Source: Octopus vulgaris
Lineage: Eukaryota
Direction of reading: 5' to 3'
DNA: 64,000 bases
Assembly (NCBI GenBank): GCA_951406725.2
Contig: OX597829.1
Span: 23,126,001 to 23,190,000 of the forward strand
Each line of letters begins with the position of its first letter. The stretch's first letter is position 1. The notes under the pieces are model-generated. The model made no database searches. It saw only the letters and a program-made list of their open reading frames with translations, and was not told the origin of the DNA. Position numbers and translations under genes: made by a program. Shown piece by piece: positions 570-37,797 of the stretch.

Positions 570-1012
570 CTGGGTTATCAGATTAATTCATTGCAGATTA
601 TTATGAATTCTGTTCACAAACGCACACACACACACAAGTACATATGCACACAAGGATTTGGGTTGTCAGATTAATTCGTTCGTTTTTTTTTTTTGTTTTT
701 TTAGTTTCCGACTTTGCACTACTCCATTGTCATATGTCTTAAAAGAGGTAAAATTTATCCAAATTAAAAAAAAAAAAAACGATAGATAAAATTTGTAGAA
801 GAAGAATAACGCTACAAAAAATAATAAGAGAAGGAAAAGGAAAGAAAGAAAAACAAAAAGATAAAAAAAAAAACTACGGTAAAAATACTGGAAATAACTG
901 GAAATGTGAAGTAATTTATCTAACAATTCAATAAGTACTTGCGCGTGCGCACACACGCACTTACACACTCCACACACATTCATATAAATACGCACTCAAA
1001 ACACTTATACTT

Positions 1013-1405
1013 ATTTCTTTATTGCCCCCCAGGGGGCTAAACGCAGGGAACGAACTAGGACAGACAAAGGGATTAAGTCGACTAGATCGACTCTAGTGCG
1101 TAACTGGTACTTATTTAATAGAGGAAAGGCAAAGTCGACCTTATCAGAATTTGAACTTAGAACGTAACGGCAGACGAAATACATATTTCTTTACTACCCA
1201 CAAGGGGCTACACACAGAGACGACAATCAAGGCCAGACAAACGGATTAAGTCGATTATATCGACCCCAGTGCGTAACTGGTACTTAATTTATCGACCCCG
1301 ATCTCGGCAAAGTCTCGGCGGAATTTGAACTCAGAATGTAACAGCAGACGAAATACCCCTAAGCATTTCGCCCGGCGTGTTAACGGTTCTGCCAGCTCAC
1401 CGCCT
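1013..1405 (-). mobile_element. tRNA-headed SINE family A, composite of two A1 units
   Basis: Minus strand: A-box-like gagctggcagaaccgtt, B-box gagttcaaattcc, A1 tail agccccttgtgggtagtaaagaaata, then a second unit starting at gtatttcgtctgcc (~1181). Confidence 0.85.
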
Positions 1406-1459
1406 TTTAAAACACTTGTACTAACACACAAGCGTAGTTATACTGTCACTGGAATTAGC

Positions 1460-1612
1460 ATCCTTTCTGCTATAAACACAAGACCTGAAAAATCTGAAGT
1501 AGGGGTCCGGTCCATTACATCGACCCCCAGAACTTGCCTGGTTACTTATTTCATCGTACCCGAAAGAATGAATGGTAAAGTCAACCTCAACGGATTTTAA
1601 AGTCAGAACATA
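1460..1612 (-). mobile_element. SINE family A2, partial and diverged
   Basis: Diverged central domain and A2-type tail ttcaggtcttgtgtttatagcagaaagg on the minus strand. Confidence 0.7.
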
Positions 1613-1616
1613 AAAA

Positions 1617-1988
1617 GCGCAGGCGTGACTGTGTGGTCAGAAGTTTGCTTTCCAGCCATATGGTTCCGCGTTCAGTCCCACTGCGTGGCACCTTTGACAA
1701 GTGTCTTCTGCTATAGTCTCGGGTCGACCAAAGCGTTGTGAGTGGATTTGGTTTACGGAAACTGAAAAAAGCCCGTCGTATGTGTGTGTGTGTGTGTGTG
1801 TGTGTATGTCCCCTCCCCCCATCGGTTGACAACCGATATTGGTGTGTTTACGTGCCTGTAACTTAGTGGTTCGGCAAAAGAAACCGATAGAATAATTACT
1901 AGGCTTACAAAGGTTAAGTTCTGGGATCGACTTGTTAGACTAAAGGTGGTGCTCCAGCATGGCAGCAGTCAAATGAGTGAAACAAGTT
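1617..1988 (+). mobile_element. tRNA-headed SINE family B (CORE-like domain, internal (TG)n, CR1/L2-like tail)
   Basis: gcgcaggcgtgactgtgtggt head, ggcacctttgacaagtgtctt core-like motif, tail ggtgctccagcatggcagcagtcaaatgagtgaaacaag; many copies in the window. Confidence 0.88.
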
Positions 1989-2084
1989 TTAAAAAAAGCC
2001 GGCCGAAATGCCGCTAAGCTTTTTCCCCTCCTCCCTAGCTTGCTAACGATTCTGTCAGCTCGCCGCTTCAAGACCCTACTTAAT

Positions 2085-2478
2085 AATGTTTTTCAAATTC
2101 TGGGACAAAGCCAGCAATTTCAGTAGAGGGGTTAAGTCGATTACATCTTGTTCAACTGGTACTTATTTCATGAATCCCGAAAAGACGAGAGGCAAAATCG
2201 ACCCCGATGGCATTTGGGCTCAGACCGTAATGATGGACAAAATACCTATTTCTTTACTACCCACAAGGGGCGAAACATAGAGGGGACAAACAAGGACAGA
2301 CAAACGGATTAAGTCGATTACATCGACCCAGTACGTAACTGGTACTTAATTTATCGACCCCGAAAGGATGAAAGGCAAAGTCGACCTCGGCGGAATTTGA
2401 ACTTAGAACATAACGGCAGGCGAAATACCGCTAAGCATTTCGCCCGGCGTGCTAACGATTCTGCCAGCTCGCCGCCTC
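2085..2478 (-). mobile_element. SINE A1 joined to the remainder of an A2 copy
   Basis: Full head from 2478, A1 tail ending aaagaaata, then ggtattttgtcc and the A2 body/tail. Confidence 0.85.
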
Positions 2479-2519
2479 AGCGCACTATCTAATGTTAGTA
2501 CTAATTTAGAACAATAATT

Positions 2520-2980
2520 ATTACATGAAATATATAATCGTGTAATGATATCATATTGTAATGAAATTACTGTGTAACGATATCATACTACAATGATATT
2601 ATTGTGAAACAATGTTTCTGTGTAATGATATCATATTGCAACGATATCATTGTGTAATTATATTACTGTGTAATGATGTTATACTGCAATGATATTCTGT
2701 AATGATATTTGTGTAATGATATCATAGTGCAATGATATCATTGTGTAATGACATCATACAGTAATGTTATCATTATATAATGATATTACTGTGTAACGAT
2801 ATCATAGTGCAATGGTATAATTGTATAATGACAGTGTATAGCAATGACATTGTCTAATGATATCATTAGGTAATAACATCATTGTGTAATGATACCATTA
2901 GGTAATAACATCATAGTGTAATGATATCATTAGGTAATAACATCATATTGTAATGATACTATATTATAATGATATCATAG
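2520..2980. repeat. Degenerate minisatellite, ~16-17 bp unit (tgtaatgatatcatnnn)
   Basis: Recurring gtaatgatatcat/caatgatatcat units over ~460 bp. Confidence 0.85.
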
Positions 2981-3440
2981 AGGCGGCAAGCTTGGCAAAT
3001 CGTTACCGGGAAATATGCTTAACGGTATTTCGTCCGGCGAGCTGGCAGAAACGTTAGCACGCCTGGTGAAATGCGTAGCCGTATTTCGTCTGTCGTTACG
3101 TTCTGAGTTCAAATTTCCGCCGAGATCGACTTTGCCTTTCATCCTGTCGGAGGTCGATAAATTAAGTACCAGTTACGCATTTGGGGTCGATATAATCGAC
3201 TTAATACCTATGTCTGTCCTTGTTTGTCCCCTCTGTCTTTAGCCCCTTGTGGGTAATAAAGAAATAGAAATAGGTATTTCGTCCGCCTTTATGTTCTAAG
3301 TTTAAATTCCTCCGAGATCGACTTTGCCTTTCATCCTGTCGGAGTCGATAAAGTAAGTACCAGTTGAGCACTGGAGTCGATGTAATCGACTTGTTCCTCC
3401 ACCGGAATTACTGGCCTTGTGCCAAAACGTGAAACCAATT
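2981..3440 (+). mobile_element. A2 SINE with an A1 SINE inserted in its head (12-bp TSD)
   Basis: ggtatttcgtcc at 3024-3035 and 3273-3284 flanks a complete A1 unit (3036-3272). Confidence 0.88.
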
Positions 3441-3454
3441 ATATTACACGCCAT

Positions 3455-3560
3455 GTGTATTTGTGTGTGTGTGTGTGAGTGAGTGAGTGAGTGAGTGAGT
3501 GAGTGAGTGTGTGTGTGTGTGTGTGTGAGTGTGTGTGTGTGTGTGTGAGTGAGTGAGTGA

Positions 3561-3595
<35 letters not shown>

Positions 3596-3762
3596 TGAGT
3601 GAGTGAGTGAGTGAGTGTGTGTGTGTGTGTGAGTGAGTGAGTGAGTGAGTGAGTAAGTGTGTGTGTGTGTATGTGTGTGTGTGTGAGTGAGTGAGTGAGT
3701 GAGTGTGTGTGTGTGTGTGTGTGAGTGAGTGAGTGAGTGAGTGAGTGTGTGTGTGTGTGTGA

Positions 3763-3797
<35 letters not shown>

Positions 3798-3834
3798 TGA
3801 GTGAGTGAGTGAGTGTGTGTGTGTGAGTGAGTGA

Positions 3835-3871
<37 letters not shown>

Positions 3872-3882
3872 TGAGTGAGTGA

Positions 3883-3975
<93 letters not shown>
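3455..3975. repeat. Compound (GT)n/(GAGT)n microsatellite
   Basis: Direct sequence. Confidence 0.95.
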
Positions 3976-3976
<1 letters not shown>

Positions 3977-5056
3977 TTGTAACACTTAAACCGTTTCAAT
4001 CTGTTGAACTTGCTCTCAATTAGTTTGACTCGAGTTCTCATCACTGGTTGGAGACGTCTTATTTTCTGCTGTCCCCTTTGTCTCATAATAATGTTCAGCT
4101 AATATTTTTTTTTTTTATGTTCATAAATTCTAATGATCAAATTCTGATGATCACATTTTTAAACCTAATCAACATATAATACGCTATGCACTACCAATAT
4201 ATAAATTCAATATGCTACGCATGCTTGTATAAAAACTTATTCCACTGAATTATTCTGCTTCATATATTCCACCATGTCCTTCTGTTACGCTTTATATTCA
4301 ACTTACTGAGTGGTATAATGTATTTATTTACCTTTGGTCTATTCTTGCACTGCACGCATTTATTTCTTGATTGAAGCACAGCAAAAATCAGAAATAATTT
4401 AAAGTTACAGATCCAAAAGAATCTGAATTCAGATGACCAAGGTGTGTTGGTGTCTCCTTATGTTTATACTAGAAATAACTAACCTTCAGGATTTCTTGCA
4501 GTAAGTGTGAATAATAATAATAATTCTTATTAGGTACATTTGTAGCTATTACACGGAATATGTCAAATACGTTGTAAATACATAGCTTTTGCATAAACTA
4601 AACCTGCTGTTCTTTGAAAATCTTTAGGAAATGTATGGAACCTGTTTGTAAGATCATGTTTTCATGTGTAAATATGCGTATATTTTGGGAGTTTTGAATA
4701 AATATACATTTAAAACATTCGTGAAATTAGGCAGATCATTTATTGTAGAAATTAACATAATGTAGAATAACGAGTTAATCATTGACTACCGTATGTCGTA
4801 CATACTAAAAGTGATCAAACTTGTATAAATAGGTGATAAATATAATTCTATTATTTTCCCTGATATTTTGGCATTTGTATTTACATCCTCATACTCTCAT
4901 TAGCAACATTCATTATGTACATTTTTCAACAATTTGAACTAACTGAATATTCATACACACAAACCAAAATGTAATTGATAATCGCAAAGTTTAGTAAAAC
5001 ACCCACTCGTTATTATTGACGGCTCGGGTATTCTAAAGATATCATAATTAACAACG

Positions 5057-5915
5057 TTAACCCATTAAGTCCCAGAGTACTTAAATTTCTGAATAAGGTG
5101 GCGAGCTGGCAGAAGCGTTAGCACGCCGGGCGAAATGCTTAGCGGTATTTCGTCTGCCGCTACGTTCTGAGTTCAAATTCCGCCGAGGTCGACTTTGCCT
5201 TTCATCCTTTCGGGGTCGATTAAATAAGTACCAGTTACACATTGGGGTCGATATAATCGACTTAATCTGTTTGTCTGTCTTTGTTTGTCCCTTCTGTGTT
5301 TAGCCCCTTGTGGGTAGTAAAGAAATAAGTATTTTGTCTGTCGCTACGTTCTCAGTTCAAATTCCGCCGATGTCGACTTTGCCTTTCATCCTTTCGGGGT
5401 CGATTAAATAAGTACCAGTTACACATTGGGGTCGATATAATCGACTTAATCTGTCTGTCTGTCTTTGTTTGTCCCTTCTGTGTTTAGCCCCTTGTGGGTA
5501 GTAAAGAAATAAGTATTTTGTCTGCCGCTACGTTCTCAGTTCAAATTCCGCCGAGGTCGACTTTGCCTTTCATCCTTTCGGGGTCGATTAAATAAGTACC
5601 AGTTACACATTGAGGTCGATATAATCGACTTAATCTGTTTGTCTGTCCTTGTTTGTCCCCTCTGTGTTTAGCCCCTTGTGGGCAGTAAAGAAATAAGAGT
5701 ACTTAAATTTCTGAATATTACTTTAAAATTTTCGCAGATGATTGAAAATACGTTAAAATGAAGAAAAAAAAATCAATTATTAAAACTCCTTTACTTCAAG
5801 TAGAAATAGATATACATGGTATCCTATAAACAGGACACCGGGACAATGTGATATAGCTTATTTAATGTTTTCATTTAGTATCCTATTTATAGGACAGTGG
5901 GACTTAATGTGTTAA
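5057..5915. mobile_element. piggyBac-type MITE (TTAA-flanked) interrupted by a SINE trimer
   Basis: TTAA-cccattaagtccca ... tgggacttaatgtg-TTAA terminal inverted repeats. Confidence 0.7.
5096..5695 (+). mobile_element. SINE A1 trimer (one head plus three 184-bp units) with 22-bp TSD
   Basis: Units start at 5146, 5330, 5514; agagtacttaaatttctgaata duplicated at 5074-5095 and 5696-5717. Confidence 0.92.
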
Positions 5916-8661: not shown

Positions 8662-9334
8662 CTGGTTTTAAACATTGTCACAAGGCCAGCAATTTTCAGG
8701 AGAGGGAATAAATCGATTACACCGACCCCAGTGTTCCACTGGTACTTACTTTATCGATCCCGAAAGGATGAAAAGCAAAATCAACCTCAGCAGAATTTGA
8801 ACTCAGAACGTAAAGACGGACGAAATGCTGCTAAGCATTTCTTCCGGCATGCTAACGATTTTGCCAGCTCACCACCTTAACAGTAATAATCCGCTCTACA
8901 ATAGGCACAAGGTCTGAAATTTGGGGGAGGGGGAAAGTCGATTACATCGACCACAAGTGCTCAACTGGTAATTATTTTATCGACCCTGAAGGGATGAAAG
9001 ACAAAGACGACCTCGGCGGAATTTGAATTCAGAACGTAAAGCCGGACGAAATACCGCTAAGCATTTCGTCCGGTATGCTAACGATTCAGCCAGCTCATCA
9101 CCTTAATAATAATAATGATAATCGTTTCAAATTTTGCCATAAGGGCAGCAGTTTGGGGGGAGGAGATGAGTCGATTACATCGACCACCAGGGTTTAAATG
9201 GTATTTATTTTATGGACCCCGAAAGGATGAAAGGTAAAGTCGACCTCAGCGGAATTTGAAATCAGAACATAGAGACGGGTGAAGTACAGCAAAGCATTTT
9301 GGCCGCGTGCTAACGATTCTGCCACCTCACCACC

Positions 9335-9338
<4 letters not shown>
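8662..9338 (-). mobile_element. Three head-to-tail SINE A2 copies separated by short TAA runs
   Basis: Three diverged copies with heads ending near 8878, 9104 and 9337, with tails like ggccttgtgacaatgtttaaaacc. Confidence 0.85.
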
Positions 9339-12330: not shown

Positions 12331-12860
12331 ATGTTTCTTTATTAGCCACACAGGGCTCCACACAGACAGAACAAATTACAAGGTAGAGCTTTTCTTTTGG
12401 GGGTGAAAAAAAGGGGGTTGGTTTTCGATCAAAAGGGATCGTAAAAGGAAAGAAAGAGGACAAAAAAAGGGGAGGATTTAAAAAAAAGGCGGGTAGAGGG
12501 AAAAAAAGAAAAGGGGAGAGGAAAAAAAAAGTTGATCAATAGGGATCGTAATCACAGAAATGTCAATATGAAGTGTAAAGGGGAGGGACAGGTGAGGTTT
12601 ACCCGTGGAAAGAAAAGCCTACGGAAAAGACCACGGTAACCTCGGTCAATGAAGTCACATGTTATATTTCTTTTTTATTTTTTTTTGCAAATAAGCAACT
12701 CTCTGTATTAATTTTTACGGTTCATAGAATCATAGTCAAGGTGGCTTCGTCATTCATACGTGCCATCCTTGCTACATTCACCCATCTTTTTTTAAAACAT
12801 TCACTAGACAAAACTTGCCTCTCTACTCTCACTTTCCTCTTCAAGTGATACTTGAAGAAT
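12331..12860 (-). mobile_element. Tx1/L1-like LINE 3' end (ORF2 C-terminus plus 3'UTR) inside (GATA)n
   Basis: [24 protein letters not shown]...* followed by a UTR ending ctgtgtggagccctgtgtggctaataaagaaac; UTR copies at 13815-13960 and 35701-35960. Confidence 0.65.
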
Positions 12861-13410
<550 letters not shown>

Positions 13411-13814: not shown

Positions 13815-13960
13815 AGTTTCTTTATTGGCCACACAGGGCTGCACACAGATGGGACAAGTTACAAGGTAGAGCTTTTCTTTTGGGGGATGAAGAAAAAAAA
13901 AAAGGGGGTGGCGTAGGTTTTCGATCAAGAGGGATCGTAAAAGGGAAGAAAAGAACAAAA
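13815..13960 (-). mobile_element. Tx1-like LINE 3' terminal fragment
   Basis: Homologous to 12331-12470; ends aataaagaaac next to (TA)n. Confidence 0.7.
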
Positions 13961-14035: not shown

Positions 14036-14110
<75 letters not shown>

Positions 14111-14315
14111 CTTTATTTAAAAGCACCAGAAAATTCAACAAAACCTGTTACTCTGAGTTTCCCGTTGCAAAAACTGTCCGATGAACGGCAACGGGAAACT
14201 CAGAGTAACAGGTTTTGTTGAATTTTCTGCTGCTTTAAATAAAACATATTACTCTACCACTGGTATTTGAGTACTCTTTTTTCCACCTTGTTTCACATTT
14301 ATGTGTTTACTCCGG
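14111..14315 (+). mobile_element. Palindromic Penelope-like mini-element (family P1) with hammerhead-like motif
   Basis: ~57-bp inverted arms plus a unique tail; motif aaaactgt-ccgatga-acggcaacgg-gaaa-ctcagag-ta-acaggtttt at 14170-14216; homologs at 40751, 44280, 49450. Confidence 0.7.
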
Positions 14316-31816: not shown

Positions 31817-32432
31817 AAGGCGGTGAGCTGGCAGAAACGTTAGCACGCCGGGCGAAATGCTTAGCGGTATTTCGTCTGGCGTTACGTTGTGAGTTCAAAT
31901 TCCGACGAGGTCAACTTTGCCTTTCATCATTTCGAGGTCAATAAATTAAGTACCAGTTACGCACTGGGGTAGATGTAATCGACTTAATCTGTTTGTTTGT
32001 CCTTGTTTGTCCCCTCTATGTTTAGCCCCTTGTGGGTAATAAAGAAACAGGTATTTCGTCTGCCGCTACGTTCTGAGTTCAAATTCCACCCAGGTCGACT
32101 TTGCCTTTCATCCTTTCAGGGTCAATTGAATAAGTACCAGTTACGCACTGGTGTCGATATAATCGACTTAATCCGTTTGTCTGTCCTTGTTTGTCCCCTC
32201 TGTGTGTAGCTCCTTGTGGGCGGTAAAGAAATAAGAATCGTTAGCACGCCGGGCCAAATAATTAGCGGCATTTCGTCCGTCTTTACGTTCTGAATTCAAA
32301 TTACTCCGAGGTCACTTTGCTTTTCAACCTTTCGGAATCGATAAAATAACTATCAGTTGCTCACCGGGATTGATGTAATCGACTTACTCCTTCTCCGAAA
32401 TTGCTGGCCTTGTGCCAAAATTTGAAACCGTT
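31817..32432 (+). mobile_element. Composite SINE A: A1-A1-A2
   Basis: Junctions aaagaaaca|ggtatttcgtc (~32050) and aaagaaata|agaatcgttagc (~32234). Confidence 0.88.
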
Positions 32433-33474: not shown

Positions 33475-33500
33475 GTTATTATTATTATTATTATTATCAT
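33390..33500. repeat. (TAT)n microsatellite
   Basis: Direct sequence. Confidence 0.95.
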
Positions 33501-33599
33501 CATCTGATTAAAACTCTCAGCTTATTTTCCTGGATATGATGAAACGTGTCAGCCGTCCACAGCCAACAGATTATGGTGACTCTTGCTTACTGGTTGTTG

Positions 33600-34420
33600 T
33601 TGTTGTTGTTATTGTTATTATTATCACTTTTGTTTGCTTTTAATCTGCGTGTTTGATGTAATCTCTTGCCGAGTCACACCCTAGGACAAGTGAAGGTTAA
33701 GAAATGTTGAAATACAACTGAAGCCTTGTCGAGGGCAGTAGAGAAATGCCTCTAAATAATACAACACAAACGTTTAAATTGATAAGGTTTTTCTAAGGAT
33801 ATGGGCAATACTTGTCAGCACAATCTTTTGAATTTCTTTGAAACATGATTCTCCTGGGATGTTGTCTAAATGTTTCGGGCATTCCTCTTTTAATAATAAA
33901 GTCACCTACAATAACAAGAACAGTTTTTGCTTTAAGAGTCCACATCTTTTGTATTTAATATTTCAATTTCCAGGTTCTTATATTTACTAAGTTTGTTAAA
34001 TTCCTTTACAGGTATATTTTTATCAGTAGGAACTCTCACATATATTACTCTGCGAGTATTTTCTTTCCTGTCTTTAATAATTATATCTGGTCGATTATTC
34101 TGGATCTTTCTGTCAGTGTTGGCAAGAAAATCCCAGAGAATGGTGACAGTTTTACCTTCAACGACTGGCTCAGAATGATGTACATACCAATAAGGAGGAG
34201 TGCTGATTTTGTAATGTTTACATATTTTCCAATGTAAATACTCTCCTGTATGGTTTATTGTTTCGCCAAATGCGGAATCTGCATTTAGAGTCTGCACCGC
34301 TCTGGAAAACGTTAGCCTGGTAATTTCTAGAAAGCAAGCTTTGATCTTGTGCTGTCAGTCTCTGCTTTCAGTCCTGAACTTTTCAACCACTGTTGGGTGA
34401 TTGCTTAGTCTATATCAGCA
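33600..34420 (-). pseudogene. R4/Dong-clade LINE 3' part (Zn-knuckle/RLE endonuclease) with UTR ending in (TAA)n
   Basis: AQDQSLLSRNYQ, LHWKICKHY...WYVHH.EPVVE...ILWDF..TDRKI.NNRPDIII...KLSKYKNLEIEI, AHILRKTLSI*. Confidence 0.88.
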
Positions 34421-35646: not shown

Positions 35647-35704
<58 letters not shown>

Positions 35705-36125
35705 TCCCGTGGCTTTTTCCATAGGCTTTTCTTTCCGCCGATAAACCTAATCTATTTTCCCTTTTTACATAGACATTTCTGTGATACACGATTGCTATTG
35801 ATCGCCCCACCTCATTTTTTTCACGATCCCTTTTGATCAGAATTCAAACCACTTTTTCTTCTTTCTTTTTTTTTTCTTTTTTCTTCTTCCCAAAAAGAAA
35901 AGCTCTACTTTGTATTTTGTCCCTTCTGTGTTCAGTCCTGCGTGGCCAATAAAGAAACATATATATATATACACGACGAGCTTTTTTCCGTTTTCGTCTA
36001 CCAAATCCACTCATAAAGATTTGGTCGGCCTGAGGCTATAGTAGAAGACACTTGCCCAAGGTGCCACGCAGTGGGACTGAACCAGGAACCGTGTGGTTGG
36101 TAAGCAAGCTACTTACCACACACAT
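35420..36125 (-). mobile_element. SINE B split by a Tx1-like 3'UTR (35701-35960, plus strand) inside its internal (TA)n
   Basis: SINE B tail 35420-35650 and head 35970-36125 flank the Tx1-like UTR. Confidence 0.82.
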
Positions 36126-37139: not shown

Positions 37140-37797
37140 ATAATAATTCTTTTAAATTTCGACAAAAGGTTGGCAATTTAGAGCTGAATCGATTACATCG
37201 ACACCAGATCTCTACCAGTTCTTATTTTATTGATCTTGAAAAGATGAAAAGCAATTTCGATCTCGAAGAGCTGTCGGTTAACGTTCGAGCTGGCAAAAAT
37301 GTTAGTACGCCGGGCGAAATGCTTAGCGGTATTTCGTCTGCCGTTACGTTCTGAGTTCAAATTCCGCCGAGGTCCACTTTGCCTTTCGTCCTTTCGGGGT
37401 CGATCAAATAAGTACCAGTTACGCACTGGGGTTGATATAATCGACTTAATCTGTTTGTCTGTCCTTGTTTGTCCTCTCTGTGTTTAGCCCCCTTGTGGGT
37501 AGTAAAGAAATAGGTTAGCGTTTTATAGGGAGGCGCGGAAATGATTGTGCCAGCCCGCCGCCAACTTGGAAAGAAATTATAACTCTTTCTACTGTAGGTA
37601 CAATGTCTGAAATTGGAGGGGAGGGATGTTAGTCGATTACACATTCACCTCAGTACTCAACTGGCACTTATTTTATTGACCCCTGAAGGTATGAAAGTCA
37701 AAGTTGATCTTGACAGCGTTTAACCTCATAACGTAAAATGCCGGAAAAGGTGCTATTTTTAGCATTGTGTGGAGTAACCATTCTGCCAGCTCGCCGT
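37140..37797. mobile_element. Cluster of SINE A copies (A2 minus, A1 plus 37285-37513, A2 minus)
   Basis: Family A modules. Confidence 0.78.

Follow-up and report, generated by a model that had tools for sequence, protein, structure and literature searches.

In crocodilians, the SINEs SINEU-1, SINEU-2 and SINEU-3 prefer a Mariner DNA transposon as target, which has been ascribed to the Tx1-Mar machinery (Kojima 2015, PMC4494074). The preference is graded (13-90% of copies), tandems are formed by sequential insertion, and a target preference is assigned where more than 20% of the flanks represent one repeat (PMC4494074). The same paper summarises the insertion of Xenopus Tx1 into Tx1D, a piggyBac-type DNA transposon. 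Drosophila R1 uses a fixed first-strand site and yields either a duplication or, when its RNA carries upstream target sequence, a precise junction; its tandem arrays arise by repeated insertion, with homology joining proposed for melanogaster-type R1 (PMC2718515). Read-through is attributed to R1Bm, as cited in PMC7265360. Tandem units consisting of partial SINEs, for which unequal recombination was proposed, occur in squamate SINE-derived satellites (PMC10702118) and bivalve tandem SINEs (PMC11481361). In octopus, OR1 and OR2 are named CORE-SINEs (PMC4758252, PMC4824008), and a 2026 annotation of Octopus vulgaris reports a burst of SINEs and LINEs at a JC distance of 0.065, together with 13 recently active L1-Tx1 families (PMC13282606). 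The accessible text of PMC4758252 and PMC4824008 makes no mention of nesting or targeting of OR1/OR2, nor does that of PMC13282606 mention nesting of SINEs.

The locus described here lies in a 64-kb stretch of AT-rich, microsatellite-rich animal DNA, the whole of which is referred to as the window. No tRNA genes were detected in the window by ARAGORN, and Rfam returned seven matches on positions 900-5800, none of them a tRNA or a ribozyme. A retrozyme-like rolling circle was considered and is unsupported, Rfam having given no ribozyme match. The A family of the window combines a common front (positions 1 to ~170) with one of two tails, A1 or A2. The A1 unit is 233 bases long and has the 3' end AAAGAAATA, while the A2 tail terminates before ATT repeats. 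A-box-like and B-box-like motifs were found in the common front by eye, by comparison with the consensus. Thirty BLAST pieces were obtained in the window with one A1 copy as query, and head positions are numbered on the copy at 5095, such that position 50 is 5144. Judging by its two abundant SINEs, the window is probably octopus DNA, and A1 and A2 may correspond to the octopus CORE-SINEs OR1 and OR2. The two octopus families that Ohshima and Okada reportedly described in 1994 share their front and differ on the 3' side. A1 and A2 would fit that description (shared front, distinct tails). In SINEBase, SINEs are defined as interspersed elements shorter than 1 kb with at least 100 copies (PMC3531059). 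A1 falls within these bounds of size and copy number, with its 233-base unit, 30 window pieces and 90,001-512,996 aligned contigs per run, and it also has the LINE-related 3' end and the target duplications of a SINE (10-22 bp at 5 of the 7 flank pairs tested). Exact-pattern scans for the SINE gave no loci in metagenome, genome and viral contigs.

The A1 tail repeatedly abuts position 50 of A-family heads. This recurrent junction is real and family-wide and, as far as the literature was searched, undescribed: repeat-targeted retroposition is already known from SINEU/Tx1-Mar and from R1 arrays, and the promoter of its own family would, within the same bounds, be a new target for a SINE. The search, outside which most subscription papers and Repbase lay, yielded no description of a SINE hitting the head or promoter of its own family. 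Like A1, SINEU is a SINE that prefers a dispersed repeat and forms tandem copies; its target is Mariner, however, and its tandems sandwich a duplication in the accessible text, whereas A1 would target its own family, and its junctions, at a site inside the head, are mostly seamless. Drosophila R1 shares a fixed site and both junction types with the model proposed below for A1, but it is an autonomous LINE with an rDNA target, while A1 is a SINE whose target homology is its own head. Xenopus Tx1, as summarised in the accessible text, is similarly a mobile element landing in another, but it is a LINE and is not self-targeting. The squamate satellites and bivalve tandem SINEs resemble A1 multimers in having tandem units from part of a SINE; their accessible text mentions neither a fixed insertion site nor a nested duplication, and the A1 arrays comprise only 2-3 units that are often mixed.

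The focal locus (2981-3440) is composed of the following features, all on the forward strand:

2981..3035 (+): A2-type head, the 5' part of an older SINE (positions ~1-61, with the A-box-like motif), ending in the first duplication copy; 9 mismatches to the A2 consensus of the window in 55 bases
3024..3036 (+): upstream copy of the target duplication (head positions 50-62); 12 bp, or 13 with a shared G
3036..3272 (+): inserted A1 SINE, ~5 bases short at its 5' end, with a doubled GAAATA tail and the G45/C50 variant; 15 of 228 bases differ from the A1 consensus
3273..3285 (+): downstream copy of the target duplication, identical to the upstream copy at 13 of 13 bases
3273..3438 (+): remainder of the older A2 SINE, with the B-box-like motif, shared core and A2 tail; 19 of 166 bases differ from the consensus

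The first-pass annotation had described an A1 unit inside an older A2 SINE, flanked by a 12-bp duplication, and this description was borne out. Positions 3024-3035 equal 3273-3284 exactly (13 of 13 bases when the next G is counted), and none of 1,361 random flank pairs reached a score of 9 or more, compared with 13 for the focal duplication. The two outer halves (2981-3035 and 3273-3438) sum to one A2. Position 61 has the A2-type base in both copies of the duplication, whereas the inner A1 has the A1 base there, together with a C at position 50; the letters at the junction thus derive from the target. The inner A1 is also less diverged (15/228, 6.6%) than the outer A2 (28/221, 12.7%; p=0.036), although the A2 value is possibly inflated, its consensus being made from 13 pieces that may mix subfamilies. 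On account of the duplication, the family-diagnostic bases and the difference in age, the locus is best read as a nested insertion of A1 into an older A2 head at position 50. An outer duplication was found neither at 2083-2478 nor around the focal A2 (scores of 2 and 4, respectively). Directly upstream of the locus (2532-2978) lies an AT-rich minisatellite with a 16-bp period, partly palindromic.

The motif joining the A1 tail to position 50 occurs six times in the window, against 0.01 occurrences expected, and none of 100 shuffles reached six:

1173-1191 (-), 2236-2254 (-), 3265-3283, 5320-5338, 5504-5522 and 32042-32060: junction motif sites from the motif scan

The recurrence noted earlier at ~1181, ~2245, ~5330, ~5514 and ~32050 was therefore confirmed, with the focal junction as the sixth site. 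The base at position 50 across the six junctions is T, G, G, A, A and G, and TTTTG replaces TTTCG at three of them. Among the ten A1 3' ends of the window, six lie at position 50, one at position 17-18 and three are free in unrelated DNA with ordinary duplications. Seven of the ten are consequently situated in an A-family head, which, within the window, exceeds the 20% of flanks used for assigning a target preference. Relative to random insertion, five of nine ends at position 50 gives a binomial p of 4e-15, assuming independence. The sequence-specific targeting proposed at first thus stands in so far as the fixed junction is real, both in the window and in public contigs; the three ends in unrelated DNA make position 50 a preference and not a strict specificity. 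The duplications of the free A1 copies start with GGTTA, AGAGTAC and AGTA, loosely like the target, although three cases are too few for a motif. One such copy is the following:

37286..37512 (+): free A1 monomer, flanked by a duplication of 10 bp that has one mismatch

In addition to the focal locus, four multimers were found:

1012..1407 (-): dimer of A1 and A1 (from position 50), within one 14-bp outer duplication; internal duplication absent
2083..2478 (-): full-length young A1 and old A2 body, joined at position 50; internal duplication absent and no clear outer one
5095..5695 (+): A1 trimer, comprising a head and three 184-bp units, within an exact 22-bp outer duplication
31817..32430 (+): A1, A1 (from position 50) and A2 (from position 17-18), within one 17-bp outer duplication

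The downstream partner is A1 at three of the junction loci and A2 at two, which excludes descent of all multimers from a single ancestral dimer, the outcome that had been named as a refutation. The claim that the multimers were built by independent nested insertions fared less well. An internal duplication was found at one of the five multimer loci, namely the focal one, and the count of duplications that had been suggested as a check was negative at the other four. At three loci, one outer duplication encloses the whole multimer (14 bp with one mismatch, 22 bp exact and 17 bp with one mismatch). Moreover, the units of the trimer share private changes: four are common to all three units, and the second unit is a mosaic, whose front shares three more changes with unit 3 and whose tail shares two with unit 1. 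Given these shared changes and the mosaic unit, the trimer is most readily explained by local duplication or re-copying. It is also the only locus that fits a SINE-derived satellite (tandem like units, local amplification), the focal and the three other loci being mixed composites.

At 2083-2478, the A1 (11/232, 4.7%) is far less diverged than the A2 body (30/163, 18.4%; p=2e-5). Little divergence is likewise seen in the head at 2430-2478 (2/49 versus 30/163; p=0.012), so the original head of the A2 must have been lost or overwritten. At 1012-1407 and 31817-32430 the downstream unit is similarly or more diverged than the upstream one, and the differences in age are not significant (p=0.15 between upstream and downstream A1 at the former, p=0.08 between the A1s and the A2 at the latter). 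The upstream and downstream A1s of these two loci differ at subfamily sites 127/130 and are hence not mutual copies. The second insertion site that had been proposed at ~32234 does exist (head position 17-18, in the A-box-like motif), but it is a single case, and none of the best 15 of 1,155 joints listed from public contigs falls at that position.

Contigs from 4 of 24 listed runs were aligned to the A1 monomer. X1 and X4 are DNA runs, X12 carries a third species label and X17 is guessed to be RNA. The figures refer to distinct forms and not to loci, identical junctions collapsing into one and some joints remaining uncounted, and they do not separate independent insertions from amplified composites. 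Joints of the tail to 5144-5148 accounted for 6 of the best 15 of 1,155 joints (142 contigs in X1, 197 in X4, 85 in X17 and 9 in X12). Among the joints listed, tail-to-position-50 was the leading A1 3' junction in X1 and X4 and was rare in X12, in which the depth of the A1 tail was about one-tenth of that in X1; joints of the tail to position 1 were found in 32, 48, 10 and 3 contigs of X1, X4, X17 and X12, respectively. Loose ends before 5144 that read into the A1 tail were observed in 972 contigs of X1, 1,274 of X4 and 468 of X17 (best 24 of 1,482 rows), and no such row was among the best six of X12. Tail-to-5161 joints (43, 57, 4 and 9 contigs) were dropped from the count, 5161 being the start of the A2 alignments.

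The letters between the tail and position 50 vary among the contigs (A, T, GA, GGTA), as expected from several origins. Among the rows listed, only A1 tails reach position 50 and no A2-type end does; both A1 and A2 act as the downstream partner, and A2 arrays join at position 1. That only A1 tails occur at the site, with partners whose tails are unrelated, points to a DNA target. One of the best 15 rows was an upstream-type joint, which leads from 5158 to 5095 across two intervening letters and was represented by one contig in each of three runs; such joints would be expected to scatter with the length of the duplication and the truncation, such that their rarity among the best rows carries little information. 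The depth of this single contig (71/850/0/343) was not used as a copy number.

The last 42-44 bases of A1 are ~80% identical to the 3' ends of three LINE elements in the window:

12331..12862 (-): 5'-truncated LINE with the end of ORF2 at 12725-12862 and an A1-like 3' end, in a (TATC)n array; candidate partner family
13816..13950 (-): short 3' piece of another LINE copy from this family, flanked by microsatellites; its 5' boundary is approximate
35700..35960 (+): part of the 3' UTR of a third copy from this family, within a (TA)n run

The 46 ORF2 codons of the first element match two zf-RVT proteins, one of which also contains RVT_1, at 67% and 75% identity (E 1.2e-7 for the RVT_1/zf-RVT protein), and in most long relatives of the matched proteins an endonuclease is combined with RT and zf-RVT domains (97 hits). 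On the basis of this predicted APE-RT-zf-RVT architecture, the tail-sharing element is classified by homology as an L1/Tx1-type LINE, possibly of the Tx1 clade proper. All three of its copies reside in (TA)n or (TATC)n microsatellites and none (0/3) in a head, so the target preference of A1 is not shared by this candidate partner and its endonuclease alone does not explain the head site. The true partner of A1 may be a sister family. One of the tail-sharing remnants is embedded in the (TA)n stretch that belongs to a copy of the window's other SINE family. A further, degenerate LINE 3' end, ending in TAA repeats, occupies 33500-34400 (-); no likeness of this remnant to the A1 or A2 tail was seen by eye, and none of its three proteins gave a Pfam match. 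Its motifs resemble those of restriction-like-endonuclease elements (Dong/R4 type). Two (TATC)n arrays flank a short element at 14100-14310 that has long inverted repeats and may be a MITE or an element associated with microsatellites.

The insertion site lies between the A-box-like and B-box-like motifs, and position 50 closes the loop of a predicted hairpin at ~30-66 (segment energies of -17.6 to -21.7 kcal/mol). Folding of the whole A1 monomer is not unusual (z -1.09). The substitutions T45G and G50C (window positions 5139 and 5144) each account for 13-15% of depth in X1 and X4, ~24% in X17 and less than 1% in X12, and they occur together in the inner A1 at 3036-3272, their linkage being taken from this one copy. 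Together they turn a U-G wobble pair of the predicted hairpin into G-C, and G50C also alters the first target base; this paired change suggests that the head hairpin matters. Base pairing within the RNA between the tail and the hairpin's 3' arm was also considered and rejected (predicted probability 0.0000 in three of three copies).

We consider it fairly probable that A1 is placed by target-primed insertion that prefers head position 50, with the 5' side usually sealed via head-to-head homology and with later amplification of the composites. The model starts from what was observed, namely a fixed junction, one duplicated insertion, a LINE-like tail and an older downstream partner at two loci. 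A1, a non-autonomous SINE, would borrow the enzymes of an L1/Tx1-type LINE via its LINE-like tail, and the first strand would be nicked and primed at position 50-51 of other family members (A1 or A2), on the border of the hairpin loop. If the 5' side were joined without homology, a duplication of 12-13 bp would result, as at the focal locus. More commonly, the new DNA end would anneal to the matching target head upstream, giving a head-body-body arrangement that lacks an internal duplication and leaves the duplication of the old element enclosing the whole multimer. This homology-joining step is invoked for the other four multimer loci, since one internal duplication was found among five. The composites would then be multiplied by local duplication, as at 5095-5695, and perhaps by retroposition of entire composites.

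A rather unlikely alternative is that chance composites (A1-A1 and A1-A2) became masters, were retroposed whole and were expanded by unequal crossing-over, in which case the site would be inherited and not chosen. The single outer duplications around 1012-1407, 5095-5695 and 31817-32430 are consistent with such masters, as are the changes common within the trimer and the 221C found in the three last A1 units of multimers but in none of six others (p=0.012; a site chosen post hoc, with the first two units of the trimer counted once). Junction contigs are also present in X17, the run guessed to be RNA, and A1 units contain no internal TTTT, which would allow Pol III read-through. At least two independent origins at one base would nevertheless be required by the A1 and A2 partners, and the focal locus has its own duplication and a different subfamily; the strong age gap at 2083-2478 and the varying junction letters in public contigs also argue against inheritance of the site.

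Another reading, which we regard as tentative and rather unlikely, retains priming at position 50 of any family head but has the A1 RNA itself steer the insertion. The transcript of a nested A1 would be bordered by target sequence at either end, as its head would match the DNA upstream of the site; read-through would add the first bases from position 50 and end at the TTTT formed by CpG decay (3 of 6 junctions). Such an RNA could prime at position 50 and seal by homology, in a self-reinforcing loop like that of R1/R2 on rDNA, from which the G45/C50 subfamily would possibly escape as a target. The location of the tail-sharing LINE in microsatellites would fit a preference encoded in the RNA.

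It is distinctly unlikely that the multimers are one-event products of template switching, in which the RT would copy SINE RNA back to position 50 (at the hairpin loop or an RNA cut) and then switch to an A1 RNA at its 3' end, be it the same molecule or a different one, so that head-to-tail multimers would form. Single outer duplications, pristine heads, near-identical trimer units and the closing of a stable predicted hairpin loop by position 50 would all be in keeping with such jumps. The internal 13-bp duplication of the focal locus, however, would demand two contrived jumps, A2 partners would call for an A2 machinery that jumps only onto A1 tails, and the equal age and fresh outer duplication predicted for 2083-2478 were not seen. 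Purely DNA-level slippage or unequal recombination, by which a tandem unit of 184 bp would be made and expanded in the manner of SINE-derived satellites, is very improbable as a general origin: the tandem period of 184 at two loci and the middle unit of the trimer (front of unit 3, tail of unit 1) accord with it and it stays valid for expansion, but the tail lacks any homology to the sequence preceding position 50 from which the first junction could have started, neighbouring units at four loci come from different subfamilies or families, the A1-A2 composites contradict it and the focal duplication cannot be produced by it. Alongside target-primed insertion, composite masters and DNA-level duplication probably contribute in any case.

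If true, homing of a SINE to the promoter of its own family would amount to a self-made safe harbour, in which the element lands in junk, keeps a full promoter upstream and builds multimers. Dimeric and multimeric SINEs, as well as SINE-derived tandem repeats, the origin of which is usually ascribed to chance, could arise by this concrete route. As to scale, more than a thousand distinct contigs per run show the position-50 junction (among the rows listed). Repeat annotation and dating are affected as well, nested copies inflating family counts and mixing ages.

Two other arrangements of A-family copies were noted in the window. At 8662-9336 (-), three full-length A2 copies lie head to tail with short ATT-rich spacers, another tandem mode that joins at position 1. 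An A2 is interrupted at approximately positions 63-70, and not at position 50, by an antisense copy (1617-1990, +) of the second abundant SINE family, which has 27 BLAST pieces in the window; a short A-rich duplication accompanies this insertion.
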